From: Brevundimonas sp.
GTDB lineage: Bacteria > Pseudomonadota > Alphaproteobacteria > Caulobacterales > Caulobacteraceae
Length of the DNA stretch: 64,000 bases
NCBI RefSeq assembly: GCF_036405315.1
Contig: NZ_DASWXW010000016.1
Span: 5,134-69,133 of the forward strand
Direction of reading: 5' to 3'
This document shows, one piece after another, positions 1,918-45,854 of the stretch. Below the pieces are notes generated by a model. The model made no database searches. It worked only from the letters and a program-made list of their open reading frames with translations, and was not told the DNA's origin. The number at the start of each line of letters is the position of its first letter. Within the stretch, counting starts at the first letter, position 1. Made by a program: the position numbers and the translations under genes.

Positions 1918-2223
1918 TCAAAATCCCGCGCGGCGGGATCGTTGCATGGCGAACCGCCCCAGACCGGAAGCGGGCCTGCTTAATGTCCGCCAAGGATAGC
2001 GGTCGCTAGGCGGGAACTTATCGGACCACACCTTCATCCGCTTCCGCATCCAGCCTGCGAGGATGATGAAGGCGGCGGAAACCAAGGTCATGGTCGCGCA
2101 GAAAAACGCGGAGAGTTTGTCCCCATCGCGCAGGAAGGCGATGGCCAGAACGAGTGACCCCATCAGCACCAGCATGCCCACAAGCTGGGCCGCGTGGGAG
2201 ATCATCGAGTAGGTTCTGAGCAT
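1918..2223 (-). CDS. Low-GC hypothetical membrane protein (2 TM); 3' end reads through palindromic repeats
   Basis: Two hydrophobic segments; atypical codon usage; tail DRYPWRTL is encoded by repeat copy 1982-2004. Confidence 0.55.
   Translation of the reverse strand: MLRTYSMISHAAQLVGMLVLMGSLVLAIAFLRDGDKLSAFFCATMTLVSAAFIILAGWMRKRMKVWSDKFPPSDRYPWRTLSRPASGLGRFAMQRSRRAGF
1952..1975 (-). repeat. Degenerate GTCCGC/GCGGAC palindromic element
   Basis: Minus strand GCCCGC-TTCCGGTCTGGG-GCGGTT, 12-nt spacer. Confidence 0.45.
1982..2004 (-). repeat. GTCCGC/GCGGAC palindromic element
   Basis: Minus strand GACCGC-TATCCTTG-GCGGAC-ATT. Confidence 0.65.
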
Positions 2224-2227
2224 ACCG

Positions 2228-2569
2228 TCAGCTAGCTGTCTTTGGGGGCAGTTGACGGAGGTTCGCTCGGGCCTTCTGTGTTGACCAAAGCGCCAAGCGG
2301 GCGCGGTCAGGCTTGGCGCGTTCGATCATGACCGTCGCTCCCCGCTCCTGAAGAAACCGACGCAGGCGCTTGCCGTTTCGTCGCCCCCATACACCGACGT
2401 AGCAAGTGAAAAGTCCGCGCCTGTAAAAGACCGCGCCGCTGAAAGTCTTGGAGAGTTCCTTCACCCTCATGAACTTCGATAAGGCCCCACGCTCGACGAC
2501 GCAGACATGCGTATCGCCATCAGGGCTGAAATTCAGATCGCGAAATGCGTAGGCCGTCAGCGGCTTCAT
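2228..2569 (-). CDS. Low-GC hypothetical basic protein
   Basis: ORF MKPLTAYAF...PKTAS, 113 aa; stop 4 nt before next ATG; upstream extension in ORF track is repeat-derived (SDPLRTF). Confidence 0.55.
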   Translation of the reverse strand: MKPLTAYAFRDLNFSPDGDTHVCVVERGALSKFMRVKELSKTFSGAVFYRRGLFTCYVGVWGRRNGKRLRRFLQERGATVMIERAKPDRARLALWSTQKARANLRQLPPKTAS

Positions 2570-2594: not shown

Positions 2595-2622
2595 AAGGTC
2601 CGCAATGGGTCCGAAAGCGGCC
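2595..2622 (-). repeat. GTCCGC/GCGGAC palindromic element
   Basis: Minus strand GGCCGC-TTTCGGACCCATT-GCGGAC-CTT. Confidence 0.7.
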
Positions 2623-3616: not shown

Positions 3617-5359
3617 CTAGACCAGCTCCGCCGCCGCGCGACGGGCGCGCACCACGTCGGCCACGTCGGCCAGCACGCTTTCGGTCGTGGCCCAGCGCCC
3701 GGCTCCGCGCCCCTTGCACGTCCAGACGCGACCGTCCTGACCATAGACTTTCAAGGCGTTTCTCTCTCCGTTCAGCGACTGGAAGAGCGCGTCTTTCAGG
3801 TCGCCGTCAAGGCGGACCGAGGCGTCCAGATGGCCGCCCCTATCATGACAGGCGCCGATCTGGCGCACCTGGCGGTCGCCCAGCGGCGTTTCGGCCGACA
3901 GTTCGTCGCGCGGCAGGTCGGCGGGGGCGCGGCCGAAGGCCTCGAAGGACAGCAGCTTGACCTTGGCGGCGGCGTCGTGGCCCTCCAGATCCGAGGATGG
4001 GTCTTCCTCGGCGAAGCCCGCCACGCGGGCGTCGGACAGGGCGTCGGCAAAGGCCGCCCCCTCGCCCAGACGTTGCAGCATGAAGTTGACCGTGCCGTTC
4101 AGCACCGCCTCGAACCCGGCGACGGGACCGGCGGCGCGGGCGGCGCGCAAGGTCTCGATCATCGGCGCCCCGCCGCCGACCGAGGCCGACCAGGCGACGC
4201 GACAGCCGTTGGCGGCGGCCAGGGCCTGAAGCCCCGCCGGATCGCGGGCCACGGCCTGCTTGTTGGCGCTGACCACGTCGCAGCCGGCCTCCAGCGCGCG
4301 ACGGATCAGGGCGTGACCGGCCTCGCCTTCCGACAGGGCCTCCAGCAAGAGGTCCGGCTTCTTGGCCAGCAGGGCCTCGACGTCGTTGGTGAACAGGTCG
4401 GCCGGGGCCGCCACGTCGCGTTTCTTGCCCGGATTGCGGACCAGAACCCCCACCACCTCATAGCGTTTGTCCGGCAGCAGGCGGTTCAGCAGGCCGCCGC
4501 CGACCACGCCGCAACCGGCCAGGGCCACCCGCAACGGCGCGTTCGACTGCACCGGGCCGGGAGGCGCCCCGCGCTCGCCGACCACCGTGCCCTCGGCGCG
4601 GCCCAGGGCGGCCACCTCGATCTCGACCCCGCGCGCCTCGCCCAGGTCGATGGCGTCATGCTGGACCAGGGCCCCGCCCAGACGGCGCGCCGTCTCCCAA
4701 CTGGCGCGGCGATAGCGCAGCGGCGTCCCCGTCTCCGAGGCCGGATCACGGTCGTAGAGGCCGTCGACATCCTTCACCAGGCGCACCCGGTCCAGGCCCA
4801 GCTCGGCGGCCAGAACCACCGCCGTCAGGTCCGATCCGCCGCGCCCCAGCAGGGCCACGCGGCCGTTCGCGCGCACCCCGCCGAAGCCGGGAACCACCAC
4901 CACCTCATGCTCGGCCAGGGCGCCGTGCAGCCGCTCGCCCTTCAGGCTGACCGGCCGGGCGTGCTGGGCCGGACCCTCGACCACGATCCCCAGTTCCCGC
5001 ACCGACAGACCCACCGCGTCCAGACCCACCCGGTCGCAGGCGATGGCGACCAGGGCCGCCGCCTTCTCCTCGCCCAGCACCACATAGGCGGGCAGCAGTT
5101 CGTTCTCGTGATCCAGACCCAGGGCGCGGGCGTCGGCCAGCAGCCGGTCGGTGTGCCCCGACAGGGCTGAAACCACCGCCACCACCTTCCGCCCGGCGCG
5201 GACGTGACCGTAGATTTCCGAGGCCACGGCGGGGGCTTCGGCGGCGTTGCGCAGGACGGAGGAGCCGAACTTAAGCACCACGACTTCGGCGGCCACGGGG
5301 GCGTCGAGGGCCGCTTGCGGTTTCTGTTGATCGGCGACGAGAGCGAGAGAGGCGGGCAT
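3617..5359 (-). CDS. Aspartokinase-homoserine dehydrogenase fusion lacking ACT domains
   Basis: KFGSS and LLGRGGSDLTA, KDVDG (AK), followed directly by GCGVVGGG, SANK, LNGTVNF, GFAEEDPSSDLEG (HSD); 580 aa. Confidence 0.88.
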   Translation of the reverse strand: MPASLALVADQQKPQAALDAPVAAEVVVLKFGSSVLRNAAEAPAVASEIYGHVRAGRKVVAVVSALSGHTDRLLADARALGLDHENELLPAYVVLGEEKAAALVAIACDRVGLDAVGLSVRELGIVVEGPAQHARPVSLKGERLHGALAEHEVVVVPGFGGVRANGRVALLGRGGSDLTAVVLAAELGLDRVRLVKDVDGLYDRDPASETGTPLRYRRASWETARRLGGALVQHDAIDLGEARGVEIEVAALGRAEGTVVGERGAPPGPVQSNAPLRVALAGCGVVGGGLLNRLLPDKRYEVVGVLVRNPGKKRDVAAPADLFTNDVEALLAKKPDLLLEALSEGEAGHALIRRALEAGCDVVSANKQAVARDPAGLQALAAANGCRVAWSASVGGGAPMIETLRAARAAGPVAGFEAVLNGTVNFMLQRLGEGAAFADALSDARVAGFAEEDPSSDLEGHDAAAKVKLLSFEAFGRAPADLPRDELSAETPLGDRQVRQIGACHDRGGHLDASVRLDGDLKDALFQSLNGERNALKVYGQDGRVWTCKGRGAGRWATTESVLADVADVVRARRAAAELV

Positions 5360-5805: not shown

Positions 5806-5929
5806 CACTCATCAAGACCGGCTGAGGGATTAGGCCCTTTGACGCCGGGGCAACCATCGGGTTCCGCCCGAAACGGTGCCAACTCCTGCGGGGTTTTCAG
5901 GCTTGCCTGAAAATCGCGAGAGATGGGTG
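5806..5929 (+). ncRNA. SAM-I (S-box) riboswitch
   Basis: CACTCATC/GATGGGTG P1; AUCAAGA, GAGGGA, GGCCC, GGCAACC, GGUGCCAA, CCUGC core motifs in canonical order; upstream of metX. Confidence 0.88.
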
Positions 5930-6009: not shown

Positions 6010-7077
6010 ATGACCCTGGCCCTGATCGAACCCGTCGCCCCCGCCGAAGAGCCCGCCTGTCGGCCTGCGTCTGCACGCCGTCCGTCCGAGCTGCTGTCGC
6101 GCGACGGAGCCCATGACGTCGTCGTCCCGATCCCAGACGGCTTCCCGCTCGATTTCGGCGGCGCCCTGAACCAGAAACAGATCGTGGGCCGCCTGCACGG
6201 CAAGGCCGGCGCCCCCCTGATCGTCGTGGCCGGCGGCATCTCGGCCGACCGCTACGTCCACCGCACCGAGACCAAGGGCCTGGGCTGGTGGTCGGGCGCC
6301 GTGGGCGTGCGCGCCCCCATCGACCTGACCCGGTTCCGCGTCCTGGCCTTTGATTTCGCCCCGGAGTTCGGCGAGGGCGTCAAAGACGCCAAGACCCCGC
6401 TGACCATCACCACCCAGGATCAGGCGCGGCTGCTGGCCCTGCTGCTGGATCACCTCGGCGTGGACAAGGTCGCGGCCTTCATCGGCTGCTCCTACGGCGG
6501 CATGATCGCCCTGGCCTTCGGCGAGATCTTCCCCGACTGGGCCGAGCAGCTGGTGGTGGTGTCCGCCGCCCACCGCCCTCACCCCCTGGCCACGGCCTGG
6601 CGCGGCATCCAGCGCCGCATCCTGCAGCTGGGCCTGGAAACCGGCCGCGTCGATCAGGCCGTGGGTCTGGCCCGCGAGCTGGCCATGACCACCTATCGCA
6701 CCCAGGAAGAGTTCGGCGAACGCTTCGATTCCGAGGCCCCCAGCCACGCAGGGCAAGCCTATCCCGTCTGCGACTATCTGACGGCGCGCGGCCGGGCCTA
6801 CCGCGACCGCACCACGCCGTCGCGCTGGCTGACCCTGTCGGACTCCATCGACCGCCACCGGGTCGAGCCCGAGGCCATCACCGCCCCCGTCACCCTGGTC
6901 GGCTTCACCACCGACCGCCTGTGCCCCATCGACGACATGAGGGAGCTGGCCGCGCGCCTGCCCAACCTCTGGCGCTTCGAACAACACCCCTCCCTCTACG
7001 GCCACGACGCCTTCTTGAAGGAAGACGCCCTGGTCGCCGACATCCTGACTTCCGTACTAAAGGACATCGACCAATGA
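6010..7077 (+). CDS. metX: Homoserine O-acyl(succinyl)transferase, alpha/beta hydrolase
   Basis: GGISA, GCSYGG nucleophile, ARELAMTTYR, YGHDAFLKE; precedes metB. Confidence 0.88.
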   Translation: MTLALIEPVAPAEEPACRPASARRPSELLSRDGAHDVVVPIPDGFPLDFGGALNQKQIVGRLHGKAGAPLIVVAGGISADRYVHRTETKGLGWWSGAVGVRAPIDLTRFRVLAFDFAPEFGEGVKDAKTPLTITTQDQARLLALLLDHLGVDKVAAFIGCSYGGMIALAFGEIFPDWAEQLVVVSAAHRPHPLATAWRGIQRRILQLGLETGRVDQAVGLARELAMTTYRTQEEFGERFDSEAPSHAGQAYPVCDYLTARGRAYRDRTTPSRWLTLSDSIDRHRVEPEAITAPVTLVGFTTDRLCPIDDMRELAARLPNLWRFEQHPSLYGHDAFLKEDALVADILTSVLKDIDQ

Positions 7078-21998: not shown

Positions 21999-22195
21999 CC
22001 AGCGATTTCGTCAACCGCCTCAAGGTCTGCCGCGCCGAGCGCAACTGGACCCAGGCCGACCTCGCCGAACGGCTCGACGTCTCCCGTCAAACCGTTCAGG
22101 CGCTGGAAAAGGGCCGCTACGACCCCTCCCTGCCCCTGGCCTTCCGCATCGCCCGCCTCTTCGGCCGACCGATCGAAGCCATCTTCGTGCAGTGA
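21995..22195 (+). CDS. XRE-family HTH regulator
   Basis: NRLKVCRAERNWTQADLA..VSRQTVQALEKGRYDPSLPLAFRIA. Confidence 0.9.
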   Translation: MTSDFVNRLKVCRAERNWTQADLAERLDVSRQTVQALEKGRYDPSLPLAFRIARLFGRPIEAIFVQ

Positions 22196-22257
22196 TCCCG
22201 GCGAGCCCTAGTGCCCGCCAGCTACCAAAAACACACCGACATTCAAAGGATTAACCA

Positions 22258-22419
22258 ATGACCTGCGCCAACCGCATGGGCCAAGCGGCCAGACACGTCT
22301 CCGACCTCGCCCTGGGCGTCTGCGGAGCCCTGCTGATCAGCCTCGCCGTCATGACCCTCCCCAGCCCCGGCCAGGCCGCCGCCTGGTTCAACGCCCCCGC
22401 CGCCGTCACCGCTCGCTAA
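22258..22419 (+). CDS. Small single-TM protein, 53 aa (paralogue 1)
   Basis: RBS AAAGGA; MTCANRMGQAARHVSDLALGVCGALLISLAVMTLPSPGQAAAWFNAPAAVTAR; absent from ORF track. Confidence 0.65.
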   Translation: MTCANRMGQAARHVSDLALGVCGALLISLAVMTLPSPGQAAAWFNAPAAVTAR

Positions 22420-22447
22420 GCCCTCAGCTCATTTCAGGACCAGACCC

Positions 22448-22606
22448 ATGTTCAATCTCTATTCCTCGATCGTCGACCGCTTCTCGGGCTTCGCCCTCGG
22501 CCTCTGCGGCGCCCTGCTGATCACCACGGCCATCGAGGCCGTCCCCACCTTCGGCCGGGCCCAGCCCGTCGCCGTCATCGCCAGCAATGTTTCCAACACC
22601 TTCTGA
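22448..22606 (+). CDS. Small single-TM protein, 52 aa (paralogue 2)
   Basis: RBS CAGGA; MFNLYSSIVDRFSGFALGLCGALLITTAIEAVPTFGRAQPVAVIASNVSNTF. Confidence 0.65.
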   Translation: MFNLYSSIVDRFSGFALGLCGALLITTAIEAVPTFGRAQPVAVIASNVSNTF

Positions 22607-22786
22607 TCCAACCTCCCAGCCCTCCCGGCCGACGCCGCCGCCCTCGCCGCCTTCCCCGGCGCCGCTCACGCCGAACAGGCCGCTGCGCCGGCCGCTGCTG
22701 TCGCCGTCGGCGTCGCCCACCTGGCCGATCAGGACAGCGTCGTGGATATGCTGAAGGCGCGCGGCTACACGGTCGAACGCCTGTAA
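22607..22786 (+). pseudogene. Startless remnant resembling a TraB/GumN-family protein (signal-peptide end joined to C-terminus)
   Basis: ..LAAFPGAAHAEQAAAPAAA-VAVGVAHLADQDSVVDMLKARGYTVERL*. Confidence 0.55.
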
Positions 22787-22808
22787 GCGGCACGCCCGAT
22801 GCGACGAG

Positions 22809-22835
22809 AGGCCCGGCCGCAACGCCGGGCCTTTT
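22809..22835 (+). terminator. Rho-independent terminator
   Basis: AGGCCCGGC-CGCAAC-GCCGGGCCT-TTT. Confidence 0.7.
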
Positions 22836-22872
22836 CACTTGCGCCACCAGAACATTCCCGCAACATCGCCCC

Positions 22873-23490
22873 ATGACCGAATCCGAAAAGGCTGAAGGCC
22901 GCTGCGGCTGGTGCGGCACGACCGACCCGCTCTACATCGCCTATCACGACACCGAATGGGGCGTGCCCGAATACGACCCCCGCGCCCTGTGGGAGAAGCT
23001 GGTGCTGGACGGGTTTCAGGCCGGACTGGCCTGGATCACCATCCTGAGAAAGCGCGAAGGGATGCGCGAGGCCTTCCACGGCTTCGATCCCGAGATCATC
23101 GCCCGCTACGACGACGCCGACCGCGCCCGATTGCTGGCCGACCCACGCATCATCCGCTCGCGCGCCAAGATCGAGGCCGCCATCAACGGCGCCCGCCTCT
23201 GGCTGAACATGCGCGACAACGGCGAGGACTTCTCCGCCTGGCTCTGGTCTTTCGTCGATGGAAAGCCGCTGGTGAACCAGTGGAGCCATTTCCGCGAGGC
23301 CCCGACCCAGACCGCCGAAAGCCTCGCCATGGCCAAGGCCCTGAAGGCCCGCGGCTTCAAATTCTGCGGCCCGGTCATCACCTACGCCTTCATGCAGGCC
23401 GTCGGCATGGTCAACGACCACCAGACGACGTGCTTCCGGCATGGGGAGGTGGGCGGGGCGGGCGGATCAGGGCTGGCCGCCAAGGTCTGA
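22873..23490 (+). CDS. tag: DNA-3-methyladenine glycosylase I
   Basis: RCGW, YHDTEWG, LDGFQAGLAW, RSRAKI, GFKFCGP, GMVNDH..CF. Confidence 0.93.
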   Translation: MTESEKAEGRCGWCGTTDPLYIAYHDTEWGVPEYDPRALWEKLVLDGFQAGLAWITILRKREGMREAFHGFDPEIIARYDDADRARLLADPRIIRSRAKIEAAINGARLWLNMRDNGEDFSAWLWSFVDGKPLVNQWSHFREAPTQTAESLAMAKALKARGFKFCGPVITYAFMQAVGMVNDHQTTCFRHGEVGGAGGSGLAAKV

Positions 23491-23509
23491 TTTCCGGCGT
23501 GACGCTGCC

Positions 23510-23536
23510 GTCCGCTTTCGCCCCGTTGCGGACATT
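23510..23536 (+). repeat. GTCCGC/GCGGAC palindromic element
   Basis: GTCCGC-TTTCGCCCCGTT-GCGGAC-ATT. Confidence 0.75.
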
Positions 23537-23569
23537 GACTTCCTTCACTCGATGGCGAGTTCTTCCCTT

Positions 23570-23758
23570 ATGAACAAGCGCCACAAGATCATTTTAGGGA
23601 TCGGTCTCGGAGTTGTCGTCGCTGGGTTAGGAGCCACGTTGATCTTCTTCGACAAGGTTGACGCCTGTTACGACAGCGGCGGAGTGTACCTAGATGAGAT
23701 AGGGAAATGTTCGCATTCCCAAACCGAGGTAGATCGCTACCGACCGAAATCGGGCTGA
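23570..23758 (+). CDS. Low-GC small membrane protein, 62 aa, two Cys
   Basis: MNKRHK + TM + C..C; about 52% GC by hand count (99/189). Confidence 0.6.
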   Translation: MNKRHKIILGIGLGVVVAGLGATLIFFDKVDACYDSGGVYLDEIGKCSHSQTEVDRYRPKSG

Positions 23759-23767
23759 TCGGGCAGA

Positions 23768-23794
23768 GTCCGCGTCCCACCCCCAGCTGACGTT
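23768..23794 (+). repeat. GTCCGC/GCGGAC palindromic element
   Basis: GTCCGC-GTCCCACCCCCA-GCTGAC-GTT. Confidence 0.7.
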
Positions 23795-23866
23795 CAACGT
23801 GCCTGCTTAGCGCCGCCTACCCTCGACCGGCTTCCGCCCCGCGCCCGTTCATGGCACTGACGCGCG

Positions 23867-24517
23867 ATGAAGCCGCCCAAAGCCGCCGCCAAGATCGACC
23901 GCCCCTTCCCCACCCTGATGCTGGAGCTTGAGGCCAGCGCGACGTGGAACGGCCATGTCTGCGGCGTGGACGAGGCGGGGCGCGGGCCTTGGGCCGGGCC
24001 GGTGTCGGCGGCGGCGGTGATCCTGAACCCCGACGACCTGCCGCCGGGCATCGACGACTCCAAGGCCCTGACGGAAAAGCGCCGCGCCGCGCTGGAACCC
24101 GAGATCAAGGCCCGCGCCCTGGCCTGGGCCGTCGGCTTCGCCTCGGTCGAGGAGATCGACGAACTGAACATCCTGCACGCCACGGGCCTGGCCATGCGCC
24201 GCGCGGTCGAGGCCCTGGCCCATCCGCCGGTTCACGCCCTGGTGGACGGCAACTACCGCTTCAAGCTGCCCTGCGCGGTGACGCCCGTGGTCGGCGGCGA
24301 CGCCCTGTCCCTGTCGATCGCCGCGGCCTCGATCCTGGCCAAGACGGCGCGCGACCGCCTGATGATCGAAATGGACGCCGTCTATCCCGGCTACGGCTTC
24401 GCCAGCCACAAGGGCTACAACGCCCCCATCCATCAGAACGCTCTGAACACCCTCGGCCCCTGCCCGGCGCACCGCCGCAGCTGGGCCCCGATCAAGGCCT
24501 TGCTGGAGACCGCCTAG
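23867..24517 (+). CDS. rnhB: Ribonuclease HII
   Basis: [34 protein letters not shown]. Confidence 0.95.
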
Positions 24518-24685: not shown

Positions 24686-25726
24686 TCAGGCGGCGACGGG
24701 CAGGCTCAGTGGTTTCTGGGTCACGACGAACAGATGCTCGACGTTGCGCAGACGCCCGACCGCCCCGACCTTTTCGCCCTTCAGATTGTGGATGCCGATG
24801 CGGGCGCCGACGTAGCGGGGTCGCGGTATCTCGACCACCTGGACATGGCCGCGCGCCGACAGCATGGCCGTCAGGTCGTCACGGCTCAGATAGCCCTCGT
24901 CGTTGAAGCTGACGATCAGGTTGGGCGCCTGAAGCCGCTCGACCACGGATTGCAGCGCCGGGCCGATGCCGGGGCGGCTGTTGAACGGGCTCTTGCGGGT
25001 CTTCACGTCCACCCGCTTGTTGGCCACGCCGTAGGTCTCGGGCTTGTCCCACAGGATCAGGCTTTCCCAGCAATGGTAGTTGGCCAGATAGGAGTGCTGG
25101 TTGTAGGGCGGGTCCAGATAGACGAGATCGGCCGCGACCTGATCGGCGATCTCGACCGCGTCGTCCTGGGTGGCCTTGCACGGCCCCGCCGCCACGCCCG
25201 GCAGCAGGTCTGGCAGTCGCAGCTCCAGCGGCTTCAGCGCGCGCGGCGCCCACTGCTTCATATAGGCCATCTGCAGCCCGGCGGTGGAATCCACCCGGTC
25301 CGCCGCCTCCATCAGGGCGACCAGAACCACGGCCTTCAGCTCCGGCTCCAGCCCCATGGCCTCGATGCGGGTGCGCATGGCGTCGATGCGGGCGCCGTTG
25401 TCGGGGTGGAAGAAGCGGGCGTCCTCGCAGAAGGCCTTGGTGAACCAGCCGGCCTCGGGCGTCAGCGTCCGCAGCTCGGCCAGAACCATCTCGGCCTGGC
25501 TCGCCCAGCGTTCGCGGTCGGCCTGGACATAGGCCGTGGCCAGGGTGTGGGCGTAGGCGTTGTGGTCGTTCGACCAGACGCGAAACCCCTGTCCCTTCAG
25601 GGCGTGACCGACGCGGGCCGAACCGGAAAACAGGTCGCACACCGTCCCGCCGTCCGGCAGGGCGGCGCGCACCGCACCCGTGACATGGCCCAGAAGCGCG
25701 CGCTTTGAGCCGATGTACTTGATCAT
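24686..25726 (-). CDS. Orphan alpha-class N6-adenine DNA methyltransferase (D12/FokI-M-like)
   Basis: IKYIGSK, DLFSGS (motif I) N-terminal, YLDPPY (motif IV) C-terminal. Confidence 0.88.
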   Translation of the reverse strand: MIKYIGSKRALLGHVTGAVRAALPDGGTVCDLFSGSARVGHALKGQGFRVWSNDHNAYAHTLATAYVQADRERWASQAEMVLAELRTLTPEAGWFTKAFCEDARFFHPDNGARIDAMRTRIEAMGLEPELKAVVLVALMEAADRVDSTAGLQMAYMKQWAPRALKPLELRLPDLLPGVAAGPCKATQDDAVEIADQVAADLVYLDPPYNQHSYLANYHCWESLILWDKPETYGVANKRVDVKTRKSPFNSRPGIGPALQSVVERLQAPNLIVSFNDEGYLSRDDLTAMLSARGHVQVVEIPRPRYVGARIGIHNLKGEKVGAVGRLRNVEHLFVVTQKPLSLPVAA

Positions 25727-29595: not shown

Positions 29596-29652
29596 TGGTG
29601 CGAGCGGCGGGGGTCGAACCCGCAAGACCGAGGTCGGCAGATTTTAAGTCTG
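29596..29652 (-). tRNA. 3' half of tRNA-Leu(TAA); prophage att duplicate, not a full gene
   Basis: CAGA-CTTAAAA-TCTG anticodon arm, long variable arm, GGTTCGACCCC T arm, ..GCTCGCACCA; no D arm or 5' acceptor strand upstream. Confidence 0.88.
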
Positions 29653-29708: not shown

Positions 29709-30935
29709 TCAGATTATGAGCCGCTCGCTGGCCTGGGCGATGGCGTCGTCCTCTTCCTCGTCGCGCCAGAGATGGCCGTAGGTGTCCATCGTCATCTTCA
29801 GCGTGGCGTGTCCGACCAGCTCCTGAACCTTCTTCGGCTTGGGCTGCGGCGTTTGCGCCAGCCAGAGGCTGACGGCGACATGGCGCAGGACGTGGGGCTT
29901 GAACTCGGCAACCGGGCGGTTCTTGCCCTTGCTGTCGGGGAGCATCATCACCAGCCCGGCGGCGCGCATCAGCGGCATCCAGCAATCGCGGATGAAGTCC
30001 TCATAGCCCCACACGCCCTCGCCGGTCTTCGGGTTCGGGAACAGCCGGCCCGGCATCATTCGGCGCTCCCGGCGGCCGTCTACGTGCTGGAAGTGGCCGA
30101 CCGGCCCGCGCTTCAGGCGCCAGGCGCGCACGGCAAGGGCTGTCGTCTGCCCGATCGGCACGTCGCGTTGGCCCTTCTTCGTCTTCGGCGGGTCCAGTGT
30201 CCGGTGCGTCCGGTCTAGCCGCTCCTTCACGCGCAGCTTGCCGCCCGTCGTCCGAACAGCTGCGGCATCGTCTGCCATGCCAAGAGCTTCCGAGATCCGC
30301 AGCCCTCCGAACATGAGGATGCGCACCACGGCGCTGTCGCGTTCAGGGTTGGCGCTCTCGGTCGCGGCCTTCACCAATGCGGCGAGCTGATCCTTCGACG
30401 GCAAAGAGAAGGGCTCGCTGTCGGCCTTTTCCCCATCGCCCTCGACGGCGCAGGCCTGAGCCGGGTTCGCCAGCAGCCAGCCGCGGCGAGCTCCGAACCG
30501 GCACCACGTCACCAGAGAGCGCCTGATCTGGCGCGCGAGGTTGATGGAGCCGCCGCTCTGCACGACCTCGTCGAGGAAACCTTGAATGTCGGGAGACCGC
30601 AGGTTGGAGAGCCGGGTGCGTCCGATCTTGTGGTCGCGGATATGGGTGTCGAGGATCGACTGATAGCCGTCCGCCGTCCCGGTGCGTCGGGCGCCCGCCC
30701 TGACCAGGCCGTGGAAGTTCGCGATGTGGGCCTCGGCCAGCTGCGTCACTGTCATGGTGGACGACCCGCCGACCAGCCCGGCCGAAACGCTGTCGAGCCA
30801 CGCCTTGGCCTCACCCTTCAGGTCGAAGTTCTTGGACTGCCTGACGCCGTCAGGGCCAGCCCAGGTCGCGCGCCAGCTGACCTTGACGCTACCGTCCTGG
30901 CGCGGCCGGTTCTTGATCTTGCGGACGTTAGCCAT
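29709..30935 (-). CDS. Tyrosine integrase
   Basis: GLRISE (R), PKT (K), HVLRH, GH..KMTMDTYGH; catalytic residues intact. Confidence 0.93.
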   Translation of the reverse strand: MANVRKIKNRPRQDGSVKVSWRATWAGPDGVRQSKNFDLKGEAKAWLDSVSAGLVGGSSTMTVTQLAEAHIANFHGLVRAGARRTGTADGYQSILDTHIRDHKIGRTRLSNLRSPDIQGFLDEVVQSGGSINLARQIRRSLVTWCRFGARRGWLLANPAQACAVEGDGEKADSEPFSLPSKDQLAALVKAATESANPERDSAVVRILMFGGLRISEALGMADDAAAVRTTGGKLRVKERLDRTHRTLDPPKTKKGQRDVPIGQTTALAVRAWRLKRGPVGHFQHVDGRRERRMMPGRLFPNPKTGEGVWGYEDFIRDCWMPLMRAAGLVMMLPDSKGKNRPVAEFKPHVLRHVAVSLWLAQTPQPKPKKVQELVGHATLKMTMDTYGHLWRDEEEDDAIAQASERLII

Positions 30936-30989
30936 GCGAAGCCCCTGAGCGTGCCGCATACAGGCACGTCAGGCCGCCGATGTCATCCG

Positions 30990-31220
30990 TCACGCGACCC
31001 GCACATTCGGCGCTAGGGTCTCGTCAGCCTCCAGCCATGCGTCCAGCTCGTCGGGGAAGGCATAGAGCCCGATCCCGTCCCGCTTCCGGATCGGGCAGGT
31101 CCAGCCTTTCTCCCGCGCGTGGTAGACCCAGCGCTCGGGGCGGCCGAGATAGCTGGCGATGTCGGCGGCGCCCTCCAGACGGACGCGGCGGGTCGGCGTG
31201 CTGTCGTTCGCGGCGCTCAT
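30990..31220 (-). CDS. Excisionase-like winged-HTH protein
   Basis: AADIASYLG..ERWVY, PIRK, ELDAWL; adjacent to int. Confidence 0.7.
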   Translation of the reverse strand: MSAANDSTPTRRVRLEGAADIASYLGRPERWVYHAREKGWTCPIRKRDGIGLYAFPDELDAWLEADETLAPNVRVA

Positions 31221-43618: not shown

Positions 43619-44053
43619 ATGAACATAGTGCCGGGGACGGGCGACATCGTGCCGGAGCCGCACTGGCGCATGCTCCTGACCGACGATCTGGAGATCGAGG
43701 CCGCCGGTGATCACTGGCGGCGCATCGCCACGGAGATGAAGGAGCGGGACATCCTGTCGCCGTCGAACGGCCACGCCGTCCAGCGCCTCGTCCTGTCCTA
43801 CGTCATCTACGACCGCTGCTCTCGCGAGGTCGCCGAGAACGGCGCGGTGCTGAAACCGAAGCGCGGCAACCCGAAGGCCATCGCCCGACTGAGCCCGCAC
43901 TTTCAGGCCATGCGTGAAGCGGCGTCGGACGCCGCCGCGCTGGAGGCCGAACTGGGCTTGTCGCCGCGACGCCGCTCCGGCGCCGCGAAGATCGTGAAGA
44001 AAGCGAGGGCTGAGCGTGCCTCGGACTCGTATCTCCGGCCCGTCGCCAAGTGA
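43619..44053 (+). CDS. Terminase small subunit (P27 family)
   Basis: ELGLSPRRR; position before TerL. Confidence 0.82.
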   Translation: MNIVPGTGDIVPEPHWRMLLTDDLEIEAAGDHWRRIATEMKERDILSPSNGHAVQRLVLSYVIYDRCSREVAENGAVLKPKRGNPKAIARLSPHFQAMREAASDAAALEAELGLSPRRRSGAAKIVKKARAERASDSYLRPVAK

Positions 44054-45854
44054 CCCCACGTCCCGCTGGGCAACCGACGTCGTCGCCGGGCGGATTATAG
44101 CGGGAGAGCTGGTCGGCCTGGCTGCCGAGCGCCACCTTCGCGACCTGAAGGACGGCGCCGCGCGTGGACTCTATTTCGATGAGGCGGCAGCGGCCCGGGT
44201 GCTGGGCTTCTTCCCGGCTCTACTGACGATCACCGCGGGGACGCACGAGGGGAAGCCGTTCACCCTGCTTCCCTGGCACGCTTTCACCGTCGGTTCGCTG
44301 TTTGGCTGGAAGAAGGAAAGCGGCCGCCTCCGGTTCCGCCAAGGCTGGCTGGAGACCGGCAAGGGACAGGCCAAGTCGCCGCTCATGGCGGGCATCGGCC
44401 TTTACATGATGGGCTGGCACGGCGTGAAACGGTCTGAGGTCTATGCCATCGGGCAGGACCGAGCGACCGCCAACGTGTTGTTCAAGGACGGCGTGGCCAT
44501 GTGCCGGGCCAACCTGCCCGACACCCCGGAAGATGAGACCGACAGCCTCCTTTCCCGGGGCGAGATCGTCATCCGCGGCGAGGGCGACAACGCCTGGAAG
44601 ATCGAGCATCCCGAGTCGGGATCGAAGTTTCAGGCTTTGGCGAACGGCGACGCCATCTCGGGTCCGCGCCCGACGTTGGTGACGGCGGACGAAATCCACG
44701 AGTTCAAGACCGGCGCCCCCATCGAGACGTGGCGGCGCGCCATCGCGAAGATGCCGGGCGATGCCATGATGCTGTTGGGGACCAACACCCCGGCAACGAC
44801 GCAACTGGTCGGCACCGCCTACAGCGACTTCTTCCAGAAGGTGCTCAAGGGCGACGTCAGGGACGACGAAGCCTTCGCCTTCATCGCCCGCGTCGATCAG
44901 GCCGACCGCGAGACGATCTTCGACAACCCCACGGCATGGGTGAAGGCCCTCCCCGCACTCGGCATCACCTTCCCCATGGAGAACATCCAGGGCGAGGTGA
45001 ACACCGCGCGGGTGCTGCTCTCGACCGCCATGTCGGTGAAGCGCCTCTACTTCGGCATCCCGACCGGAGCGGTTGATTTCTGGATCGACGAAAGCGCCTG
45101 GGCCGCTGTTCAGGGTGCGGTCGATCCGGCCGAGTTCCGGGGCTGCCCCTGTTGGGCCTCACTCGACCTGTCGCAGAAGAACGACCTCACGGCCCTGACG
45201 GTGGTCTGGCTGAAGGACGGCCGGCTCTACGCGAAGACTTGGTACTGGACGACGCGCGTAGGCCTCGAAGACCGCGCCAAGAAGGACGGCGCTCCCTACG
45301 AGGTATGGGTCGCGGCCGGGCACCTGACCGCTGTTCCCGGCCCCGTAATCGACAAGTCTTTCGTGGCCGCCCAGCTCGCCGAAATCGCGGCCGAGCACGA
45401 TCTGCAGTTCATGGCCTTCGACCCGGCCGGCATCGCCGACTTCATCGCCGCCTGTGACGAGATCGGTTTCCCGGTCTGGCGGTGGTTGGGGGCGGACAAA
45501 CCCGAGGGAACCGGGCTGAAGCTGGTCGCTCACGCACAGGGAACGCGGGTCGTCTTCGAGGACCGGCAGCTCTGCATGCCGCGTTCGGTCGAGCGTCTGG
45601 AAGACGCGATCCTGAACAAGACCATCACGGTCGATGCGTCGCCTGTGACCTACATGTGCGCGGGCAACGCCCTGTTGATCGCCGACGGACAGAAGAACCG
45701 AGCCTTCGACAAGAAGGCGTCCCGCGGCCGGATCGACGGCCTGGTCACCTTGGCTATGGGCGCCGGCGCGGCCCTCTACGCCGCTCCGACCGAACCCGAG
45801 CCGGTTTCGCCCTGGGACGACCCGAACTTCTCGCTGATGGGGATGGTTGCATGA
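44016..45854 (+). CDS. Terminase large subunit
   Basis: TGKGQAKS Walker A, ADEIHE, LDLSQKNDLTA, RIDGLV. Confidence 0.93.
   Translation: MPRTRISGPSPSDPTSRWATDVVAGRIIAGELVGLAAERHLRDLKDGAARGLYFDEAAAARVLGFFPALLTITAGTHEGKPFTLLPWHAFTVGSLFGWKKESGRLRFRQGWLETGKGQAKSPLMAGIGLYMMGWHGVKRSEVYAIGQDRATANVLFKDGVAMCRANLPDTPEDETDSLLSRGEIVIRGEGDNAWKIEHPESGSKFQALANGDAISGPRPTLVTADEIHEFKTGAPIETWRRAIAKMPGDAMMLLGTNTPATTQLVGTAYSDFFQKVLKGDVRDDEAFAFIARVDQADRETIFDNPTAWVKALPALGITFPMENIQGEVNTARVLLSTAMSVKRLYFGIPTGAVDFWIDESAWAAVQGAVDPAEFRGCPCWASLDLSQKNDLTALTVVWLKDGRLYAKTWYWTTRVGLEDRAKKDGAPYEVWVAAGHLTAVPGPVIDKSFVAAQLAEIAAEHDLQFMAFDPAGIADFIAACDEIGFPVWRWLGADKPEGTGLKLVAHAQGTRVVFEDRQLCMPRSVERLEDAILNKTITVDASPVTYMCAGNALLIADGQKNRAFDKKASRGRIDGLVTLAMGAGAALYAAPTEPEPVSPWDDPNFSLMGMVA

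Follow-up and report, generated by a model that had tools for sequence, protein, structure and literature searches.

Integrons are the textbook means by which bacteria stockpile and shuffle small genes, and a survey with IntegronFinder found no integron, no In0 element and no cluster of attC sites lacking an integron integrase (CALIN) in 243 alphaproteobacterial genomes, a result that was termed 'extremely puzzling' (PMC4889954). A second described system, that of T4-type phages, consists of promoter(early) stem-loops (PeSLs), which flank orphan open reading frames (ORFans), promote replacements among closely related phages and give rise to mini-circles (Arbiol et al. 2010, PMC2839356; Comeau et al. 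2014, PMC4122927). Here we analyse a stretch of 64,000 nucleotides from Brevundimonas sp. (contig NZ_DASWXW010000016.1, positions 5,134 to 69,133; hereafter the window), in which a small open reading frame (ORF) lies between two copies of a short motif, in the space between the genes tag and rnhB. Specifically, a conserved, polar duplex motif, with one class (B) at the 5′ end and another (A) at the 3′ end of each unit, bounds mobile or replaceable ORFs here and at other loci. Our best explanation, held tentatively and with somewhat less than even confidence, is that the unit belongs to a family of mini-cassettes that are shuffled at the motif by a trans-acting recombinase, and that this family spans Brevundimonas, other Alphaproteobacteria and their prophage-like regions or regions resembling gene transfer agents (GTAs). 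The unit and its neighbours are as follows:

22873 to 23490, plus strand: tag, DNA-3-methyladenine glycosylase I (Pfam PF03352, E = 5e-77)
23485 to 23509, plus strand: degenerate upstream unit A′, GTCTGATTTCCGGCGTGACGCTGCC, overlapping the tag stop codon and abutting the B unit
23510 to 23536, plus strand: left site, GTCCGC-TTTCGCCCCGTT-GCGGAC-ATT, class B, arms 6/6 and 6/6, ATT tail
23570 to 23758, plus strand: cargo ORF, 62 amino acids (aa), ATG start, N-terminal transmembrane or signal helix
23768 to 23794, plus strand: right site, GTCCGC-GTCCCACCCCCA-GCTGAC-GTT, class A, centre CCACCC, GTT tail
23795 to 23823, plus strand: slot DNA 3′ of the A site, TCAACGTGCCTGCTTAGCGCCGCCTACCC, homologous to the post-A sequence of locus L018
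23867 to 24517, plus strand: rnhB, RNase HII (Pfam PF01351, E = 1.6e-39)

Both sites, the 62-aa membrane ORF, the site-to-site spacing of 258 bp and the two flanking genes are exactly as a preliminary description of this DNA had read them, and its estimate of about 52% guanine plus cytosine (GC) agrees with the measured content (0.524 in the ORF versus 0.665 in tag, 0.711 in rnhB and 0.674 in the whole window). The centre of the left site reads CGCCCC, compared with CGACCC in the consensus of the B family; in the right site the left arm is complete (6/6) and the right arm, GCTGAC, keeps 5/6 positions. The right site begins 9 nt past the stop codon of the ORF, as it does in the comparison loci L001, L002 and L006. 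Because the degenerate unit at 23485-23509 precedes the B copy, the left site is in fact a doublet, and a GTCTG... unit occupies the same place ahead of B in L001, L002, L003, L010 and L018. The DNA at 23795-23823 is older slot DNA, possibly a further unit that has decayed; L018, which has DNA of this type after its own A unit, holds a different cassette.

The shared orientation and 6-12-6 geometry of the two sites, which the preliminary description had stressed, are indeed present, but neither reaches significance when the window is taken by itself. The bare pattern GTCCGC-N12-GCGGAC, with at most one mismatch, was seen twice against 1.17 expected, and 34 of 100 shuffled sequences held two or more. 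Since the pattern of arms is self-complementary and its count is near chance, neither the count nor an apparent 'orientation' carries weight by itself; the orientation of the two window sites rests on the centre only. Significance was therefore sought in comparison with the profile of the family at other loci, which comprises 66 unique copies (a first profile having been built from the first copies found). Against this profile the left site scores E = 2.2e-7 and the right site E = 5.8e-3 with nhmmer. Across the 64 kb there are three matches with E < 0.01, namely both sites of the unit and one more, and all three adjoin low-GC inserts, such inserts making up 8.7% of the window.

The motif family reads GTCCGCTTTC[G/C]ACCCRTTGCGGAC-ATT, with the logo (A)(T)GTCCGC-TTTC[G/C]ACCC-RTT-GCGGAC-ATT, about 35 bits of information and a unit length of 24-30 nt. 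What had been taken for a 12-nt spacer between the arms is actually its best-conserved part, with C10, A12 and C13-15 near 2 bits each. The NTT tail, which had also been pointed out, is a conserved part of the motif and reads A-T-T-[G/C], and positions -4 to -1 read G/A/A/T at less than 0.5 bit each. The arms are not maintained as a hairpin: 331 paired cells were counted, compared with a mean of 335.7 in shuffles, all six pairs are kept in 25 of the 66 copies, and the units fold no more stably than shuffled sequence (z-scores -1.9 to +1.9). Without arm covariation or unusual fold stability the motif is read as duplex sequence rather than as a hairpin, and it appears to behave as a sequence-specific, double-stranded protein site. 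A slight sign that the base preceding unit A covaries with the one following unit B was discarded, as 4/11 is the chance level. All copies seen are extragenic, and a terminator scan at the sites found none.

The two classes differ at position 11 of the centre, which is CGACCC in class B and CCACCC in class A. Conservation is half-wise, such that the cassette-proximal halves are kept and the distal halves are degenerate; that is, the right arm of B and the left arm of A are conserved, and the left arm of B and the right arm of A are not. The order of the classes is equally regular: spaced pairs are B→A in 28 cases versus A→B in three (p = 5e-6), abutting pairs are A|B in nine cases versus B|A in none, and an abutting doublet measures 52 nt. 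Direct orientation, which the preliminary description had proposed from its two copies, extends to the family, with all sites on one strand in 22 of 25 multi-site loci and a joint chance of about 1e-13 for the co-orientation in the ten loci with at least three sites. The ORFs inside the cassettes lie on either strand, about one third of them facing away from B (for instance, a DUF805-like ORF and a molybdopterin-oxidoreductase-like ORF), and the polarity thus lies in the DNA and not in transcription.

The cargo of the window unit had been described as an ORFan. No Pfam, PHROG or PADLOC family matches it, as is also the case for most other cassette ORFs, but it is not a strict orphan: 11 homologues with 50-94% identity were found in Brevundimonas and Caulobacter sequences, all of them with an N-terminal hydrophobic helix and an invariant VDACYDxGGVYLxExxKCSxSQxEVD that includes two Cys. 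This ORF, together with both of its sites, recurs in at least six unrelated contexts, including a position between an amidohydrolase and a DUF488 gene (L002), another in the vicinity of a large serine recombinase and a giant cadherin-like gene (L001), a place behind a large repeat protein (L009), a Brevundimonas metagenome-assembled genome (L003) and two arrays (L007, L010). In these Brevundimonas-type loci the DNA homology between contexts starts inside the left site and stops at the right site. For instance, the window and L002 share 93% identity over 280 bp, a stretch bounded by position 3 in the left unit and position 24 in the right one; across contexts the limits fall at positions 1-13 of B and 12-29 of A, and the tightest same-cassette pair narrows the junctions to approximately position 11-13 of B and position 12 of A. 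The Caulobacter homologues (L004, L005, L011; about 3989-4171) have GTG starts and high GC and carry no GTCCGC motif. Their start overlaps the stop of an upstream gene, the C-terminus of which resembles L-serine dehydratase, and CCCCCGGAGGGGG hairpins follow downstream; the Caulobacter version looks like a resident, operonic form of the gene.

The space between tag and rnhB is itself a variable slot. Tag homologues assign the window to Brevundimonas, and its relatives differ in what they carry there (identity of Tag in brackets). L018 (88%) has a 92-aa ORF between B and A copies, L012 (93%) a 229-aa ORF behind a B copy, and L016/L017 (92%) a 148-aa ORF on the minus strand between B-like and A copies; in L013-15 (96%) there is a membrane ORF of about 95 aa with decayed sites, and in L021/L022 (81-82%) another ORF sits at the junction with no sites. 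L020 (79%) has an empty junction, where the tag stop and the rnhB start share 8 nt. In metagenomes, the evidence from which consists of assembled contigs, depth over 23461-23817 is 10-300x below that of the flanking genes. Some close metagenomic relatives join the end of tag directly to the start of rnhB, and others have a different A-type unit beside rnhB. An empty junction had been expected to retain a single copy of the site, an expectation contradicted by L020 and by the metagenome contigs with an empty junction, all of which have zero copies. Alignment to L020 further reveals a duplicated segment of the junction on either side of the unit:

23426 to 23481, plus strand: left copy of a duplicated target segment of about 57 bp, with local alignment to L020 2021-2130; ancestral tag 3′ end and rnhB start
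23824 to 23878, plus strand: right copy of the duplicated target segment, from alignment to L020; now the upstream region and start of rnhB

The right copy, left over from the ancestral tag 3′ end, is conserved in L012, L013, L016 and L018. The final codons of tag in the window, about 17 in number (GEVGGAGGSGLAAKV, followed by the stop), form a remodelled tail, the DNA of which aligns to the ancestral tag end and rnhB start of L020. A longer, analogous duplication is found in L062 and L063, which hold the same ORF family in the slot between decayed B and A copies. More specifically, a 45-aa remnant of the tag 3′ end (AFMQATGMVNDH…VRTMGAS, followed by the stop; L062 2467-2604, L063 1916-2053) lies behind the cassette and overlaps the rnhB start, and the intact upstream tag keeps its own diverged copy of the 3′ end. 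This duplicated-target signature shows that a gene was inserted between two overlapping genes of which neither was broken. Recombination between the duplicated segments could restore the empty junction.

The third significant copy in the window belongs to a second unit, which spans about 1985-2622 on the minus strand and has the same design as the unit between tag and rnhB:

2598 to 2622, minus strand: class B copy, GGCCGCTTTCGGACCCATTGCGGAC, with a 1-nt insertion (nhmmer E = 7e-5)
1918 to 2569, minus strand: cargo of two orphan ORFs, 2231-2569 (113 aa) and 1918-2223 (101 aa, membrane)
1985 to 2004, minus strand: degenerate A-like copy, GACCGC-TATCCTTG-GCGGAC(ATT), with a short centre (nhmmer E ~ 3, weak alone)

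Its B copy lies 29 nt past the stop codon (2652-2654) of an APH-family (thrB-like) gene, the flanks being APH and DUF5996 by Pfam, and its GC content is 0.60 versus 0.71 in the flanks. DNA homologous to the 101-aa ORF is found between motif copies in the viral locus L054. Beyond the window, cassettes also occur in arrays: L007 has about 17 motif copies on one strand in 4.4 kb, with at least nine co-oriented cassettes, and L010 has about ten copies on one strand and at least six cassettes. The end of the L007 array adjoins a terminase sharing 99% identity with a Brevundimonas member of the conserved GTA-type packaging family. Motif copies were found in 35 IMG/VR contigs with GC contents of 0.52-0.69, and on plasmids of Sphingomonas, Methylobacterium and Sinorhizobium, with A|B doublets on the Sphingomonas and Methylobacterium plasmids; among GenBank phages there was no match to the doublet. 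The gene-cassette logic of site, ORF and site that the preliminary description had proposed is therefore largely upheld, by the same ORF with its two sites in several contexts, by different orphan ORFs between the same site types at tag-rnhB and by arrays of at least nine ORFs, and its interpretation as a whole is partly supported.

The inter-cassette spacers of L010 (about 2143-2260, 231-345 and 1148-1260) contain up to four tandem family units of about 25-30 nt, which recur as a module of about 100 nt, more complex than the A|B doublet; none of the models considered here explains this module. The window itself has a prophage of about 34 kb (29560-64000), with an integrase, a small Xis-like ORF (30990-31220), a large terminase (44016-45854) and capsid and tail genes, and this prophage has no motif copy.

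Motif copies also bound insertions, deletions and replacements between close relatives, in the comparisons of L056 with L049, of L056 with L023, and of the window with L018, L012 and L016. In the prophage-like loci L056 and L049 the sequences on either side of a replaced segment (895 versus 653 bp) are 95-96% identical; the segment begins at the right arm of a B unit and stops where the next A unit starts, and L056 and L023 begin to diverge exactly after a unit. At a locus of the L056/L049 type a gene for an AAA_33 kinase is likewise bracketed by B and A. Separately, both L056 (4270-7112) and L049 (256-3465) encode three paralogous proteins of about 210-240 aa, with weak similarity to Anp1-type glycosyltransferases, around a protein of 470-618 aa.

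We infer that recombination takes place at the motif, and a trans-acting recombinase is favoured for four reasons: (i) core-type sites are likewise built as inverted arms around a conserved asymmetric centre, (ii) the cassette-proximal halves are conserved, as in hybrid attL/attR sites, (iii) the tightest same-cassette pair limits the junctions to the motif centre, and (iv) polarity is independent of gene orientation. In the explanation that we prefer, a cassette would consist of a B motif, about 36 nt of promoter-like sequence, a single small ORF, usually an orphan, on either strand, and an A motif. The site would comprise two inverted arms around the conserved asymmetric centre, which would provide polarity, and would serve as core site for a site-specific recombinase acting in trans, probably of the tyrosine type, with crossover in or next to the centre. 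A and B may be a heterospecific pair, distinguished by position 11 of the centre, such that B x B and A x A events would lead to exchange or stacking and not to deletion; this speculation would explain both the B-ORF-A order and the A|B doublets. At tag-rnhB, an old insertion would have split the overlapping genes and duplicated about 57 bp of their junction, by virtue of which both genes would have stayed intact, and the content between B and A would since have been replaced repeatedly among strains. Taken in its full form, that is, as an integron-independent cassette system of Alphaproteobacteria in which two heterospecific sites of about 26 bp and a trans-acting recombinase allow exchange and stacking among slots, arrays, plasmids and prophage- or GTA-like regions, the proposal is bolder and we regard it as rather doubtful; the same doubt attaches to calling it a natural form of recombinase-mediated cassette exchange. 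The idea of a capture system acting in trans, put forward at the outset, is thus a hypothesis.

Several observations weigh against this explanation. A simple central crossover would leave a single site between cassettes and does not predict doublets. The empty tag-rnhB junctions have zero sites, from which it follows that the first insertion used no pre-existing site. In L062/L063 the identities of Tag (71%), RnhB (71%) and the ORF (66%) are similar, and this divergence of the ORF, being like that of the flanking genes, indicates that part of the slot history was vertical or proceeded via flanking homology. Between L056 and L049, arms differ inside otherwise identical doublets, which looks like gene conversion, and breakpoints are blurred because the motif is conserved in all copies. 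Homologous recombination, whether between repeats or within the flanking genes, can account for part of the pattern. A recombinase co-occurring with the motif, as the preliminary description had anticipated, was not found: searches with tblastn, using a resolvase, a large serine recombinase and four tyrosine integrases as queries, revealed none that is recurrently linked in 458 kb of site-bearing sequence, and none beside any array, the 5′ ends of the arrays lying off the contigs. Two candidate users of the motif emerged. One is the tyrosine integrase of L026 (1329-2556) and L033 (1-1228), with a strong B copy 86 nt past its stop, exactly where the homology between L026 and L033 ends; the other is the tyrosine integrase of L031 (12015-13667), with a strong B copy 382 nt upstream of its start. 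These integrases are only 26% identical to each other, and homologues of the L026-type integrase on Sinorhizobium and Phaeobacter plasmids (46-51%) have no motif alongside, which tells against them.

The absence of a recombinase near the unit, as first described, is true within about 5 kb, but the tyrosine integrase of the window prophage (29709-30959, minus strand, PF00589) lies 5.9 kb from the unit. It has no motif copy adjacent. Beside it, at about 29596-29630 on the minus strand, there is a fragment of a tRNA 3′ end (…GGTTCGACCCCCGCCGCTCGCACCA) that looks like its att site, and this integrase was rejected as a user of the motif, given that it appears to use the tRNA-fragment att. A tRNA origin of the motif itself, as a tRNA-derived att site, was rejected on the results of ARAGORN, which found no intact tRNA in the window and none at or next to motif copies in 11 loci; the centre TTCGACC merely resembles a T-loop.

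Among the alternatives, mobile regulatory cassettes of the PeSL type survive best, and we consider them possible without thinking them probable. Here the motif would be an expression signal, with B as a protein-binding or UP-like element abutting the -35 box and A as an end-of-gene element, and the repeats would be recombined as patches of 25-55 bp by RecA or by phage or GTA functions, with no dedicated recombinase. The likeness is considerable, in that a PeSL is a conserved intergenic motif of about 50 bp that includes a -35-like element, flanks ORFans in hyperplastic regions of phages and bounds insertion, deletion and replacement between close relatives; the documented replacement and mini-circles of PeSLs (PMC2839356; PMC4122927) lend such a mechanism credibility. 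B ends in a TTGAC-like tail, with an ATG 36-38 nt beyond the end of the unit at 9 of 33 B sites versus 0 of 25 A sites, A starts 1-22 nt past stop codons, many copies reside in prophage- or GTA-like DNA, breakpoints vary within units whose arms are mosaic, and no recombinase is linked. In the window, the end of the B site runs into the following feature:

23535 to 23562, plus strand: putative promoter, with a -35-like TTGAC at 23535-23539 and a -10-like GCGAGTTC at 23555-23562

These elements were recognised by reference to the Caulobacter promoter consensus, and transcription from them would start at or near the ATG, yielding a leaderless mRNA. Several features sit poorly with an expression signal, however. 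When the 62-aa ORF family is set aside, only about three of the 36-38-nt spacings are left, and neither a consensus promoter nor a terminator nor a stable stem-loop was detected at the sites, a generic sigma-70 scan of 23300-24000 having found no promoter there. The best-conserved bases belong to the centre, which precedes any -35 box, and do not differ between hosts with GC contents of 0.52-0.69; the B→A order and the strand are kept even though about one third of the ORFs face away from B; and, unlike PeSLs, the ordered classes are found on chromosomes and plasmids across alphaproteobacterial orders. In addition, patches of 24 nt are at the lower limit for RecA.

The sole sigma-70-like match in 23300-24000 is at 23619-23591 on the minus strand (ACGACA-17-TAAAAT, 0.1 expected), antisense and inside the 5′ part of the 62-aa ORF. 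A small hydrophobic protein together with a possible antisense promoter is reminiscent of type I toxin-antitoxin pairs.

It is quite unlikely, in our judgement, that the copies are passengers akin to repetitive extragenic palindromes (REPs) and bacterial interspersed mosaic elements (BIMEs), which would have spread in the manner of REP-associated tyrosine transposases (RAYTs) or would have a structural role, the content of the slot being changed by homologous replacement through the core genes. The motif shares with such elements its short length of 24-30 nt, palindromic arms, strictly extragenic location at gene ends and in variable intergenic regions, and tandem clusters of two to four units; about three good copies per 64 kb suggest an order of 100 or more per genome, and several alphaproteobacterial orders have it. 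Moreover, L062/L063 and the duplication of about 57 bp show that flanking-gene homology has shaped the slot, and L021/L022 have inserts at the same junction without the motif. Nevertheless, there is no hairpin covariation and many copies are unable to form a hairpin, no GTAG-type head is present, copies within a locus are direct and never alternate as in BIMEs, and no RAYT was seen in the loci compared. On hairpin, head and alternation, identity with REPs was rejected, in agreement with the preliminary description, which had excluded GTAG-type REPs. Strict B-ORF-A order and half-wise conservation would not be expected of passengers, nor would a single ORF travelling with both sites between unrelated contexts or three significant window copies that all border low-GC inserts.

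An integron cassette or CALIN with unusual attC sites, its IntI being encoded elsewhere, is very improbable, although arrays of co-oriented sites separate single small, low-GC and mostly orphan ORFs, each bounded by a site-like repeat, single cassettes and arrays both occur, a CALIN needs no adjacent recombinase gene, and the conserved NTT tail is reminiscent of G|TT in R′. The boxes of attC are missing, as a RYYYAAC-like 5′ flank is present in only 1-2 of eight array sites and the tail is ATT[G/C]NN, not GTTRRRY. Sequence is conserved and structure is not, the opposite of attC, and the unit of 24-30 nt and the doublet of 52 nt contrast with the structure-defined hairpins of 57-141 nt that constitute attC sites. 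Identity with attC was rejected on boxes, structure and length, which bears out the earlier exclusion. Integrons likewise do not share the two site classes at the 5′ and 3′ ends, the doublets between cassettes or the inversion of one third of the ORFs; many of the cassettes seem to carry their own promoter and also stand singly between core genes, no IntI was found in the site-bearing loci, and the host class is the one reported to be integron-free (PMC4889954). Lastly, that two unrelated weak palindromes flank a small gene by chance, as the shuffles of the bare pattern might suggest, is already refuted by the match of both sites to the 66-copy profile (E = 2e-7 and 6e-3) and by the recurrence of the same site pair around the same ORF elsewhere and around other ORFs at tag-rnhB.

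Other described systems resemble the preferred cassette explanation in part. Minimal mobile elements of Neisseria and phage 'morons' are alternative small units of deviant GC at the same position between conserved genes, and exchange through flanking homology, as in the former, is plausible at this slot (L062/L063), but they are defined by position only and have no bounding motif, arrays or order rule. The pdif (XerC/D) modules of Acinetobacter also have short core-type sites with arms, a central region and one strong and one weak arm; however, pdif is built as 11-6-11, is dif-like and has inverted flanking sites, whereas the motif sites are direct. To our knowledge, and by inspection only, the motif does not resemble the proteobacterial dif consensus (XerD arm TTATGTTAAAT-like). 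In engineered heterospecific lox/FRT exchange, a non-cross-reacting pair allows exchange without loss, a property that A and B may share, judging from a single position of the centre. Ends of miniature inverted-repeat transposable elements or insertion sequences were rejected: the A and B centres are direct and not inverted, cargo differs from copy to copy, and there is no fixed short target duplication, the only duplication found being that of a junction segment of about 57-85 bp at tag-rnhB. No Rfam family was found at the sites (gathering threshold in the window; E <= 1 in four site-rich loci), and in the literature searched neither the motif string nor any description under Brevundimonas integron, Caulobacter REP/RAYT or RIME was found.

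The finding is, at any rate, one of shuffling of cassettes or of regulatory cassettes, and we would put the prospect of a categorically new recombinase-based system on the unlikely side. Should a dedicated recombinase exist, the family would constitute a second and independent cassette system, possibly with new heterospecific sites for engineering; should the exchange be homologous, the PeSL principle, described in T4-type phages, would hold for bacterial chromosomes too. In both cases, the 30-nt profile is a handle for finding hypervariable orphan-gene slots in Alphaproteobacteria and for asking what role their cargo has.

A few further features of the window may be recorded. Beside rnhB there is a gene for a D12-class (Dam-like) N6-adenine DNA methyltransferase (24686-25726, minus strand), with no partner restriction gene visible near it; this gene is kept beside rnhB in six of the Brevundimonas relatives compared (L012, L013-L015, L017, L018) as well as in the window. 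On the other side of the slot, the window (22195-22873) does not have the TraB/GumN-family gene of about 323 aa that is present between an HTH_3 gene and tag in L012, L016, L018 and L019. In its place there are two paralogous membrane ORFs of about 52 aa (22258-22419 and 22448-22606), and a further membrane ORF of this type was also found in L016 and L018. Finally, an S-adenosylmethionine (SAM) riboswitch (Rfam RF00162, 77 bits) is located at 5806-5929 on the plus strand, upstream of the gene at 6010-7077.

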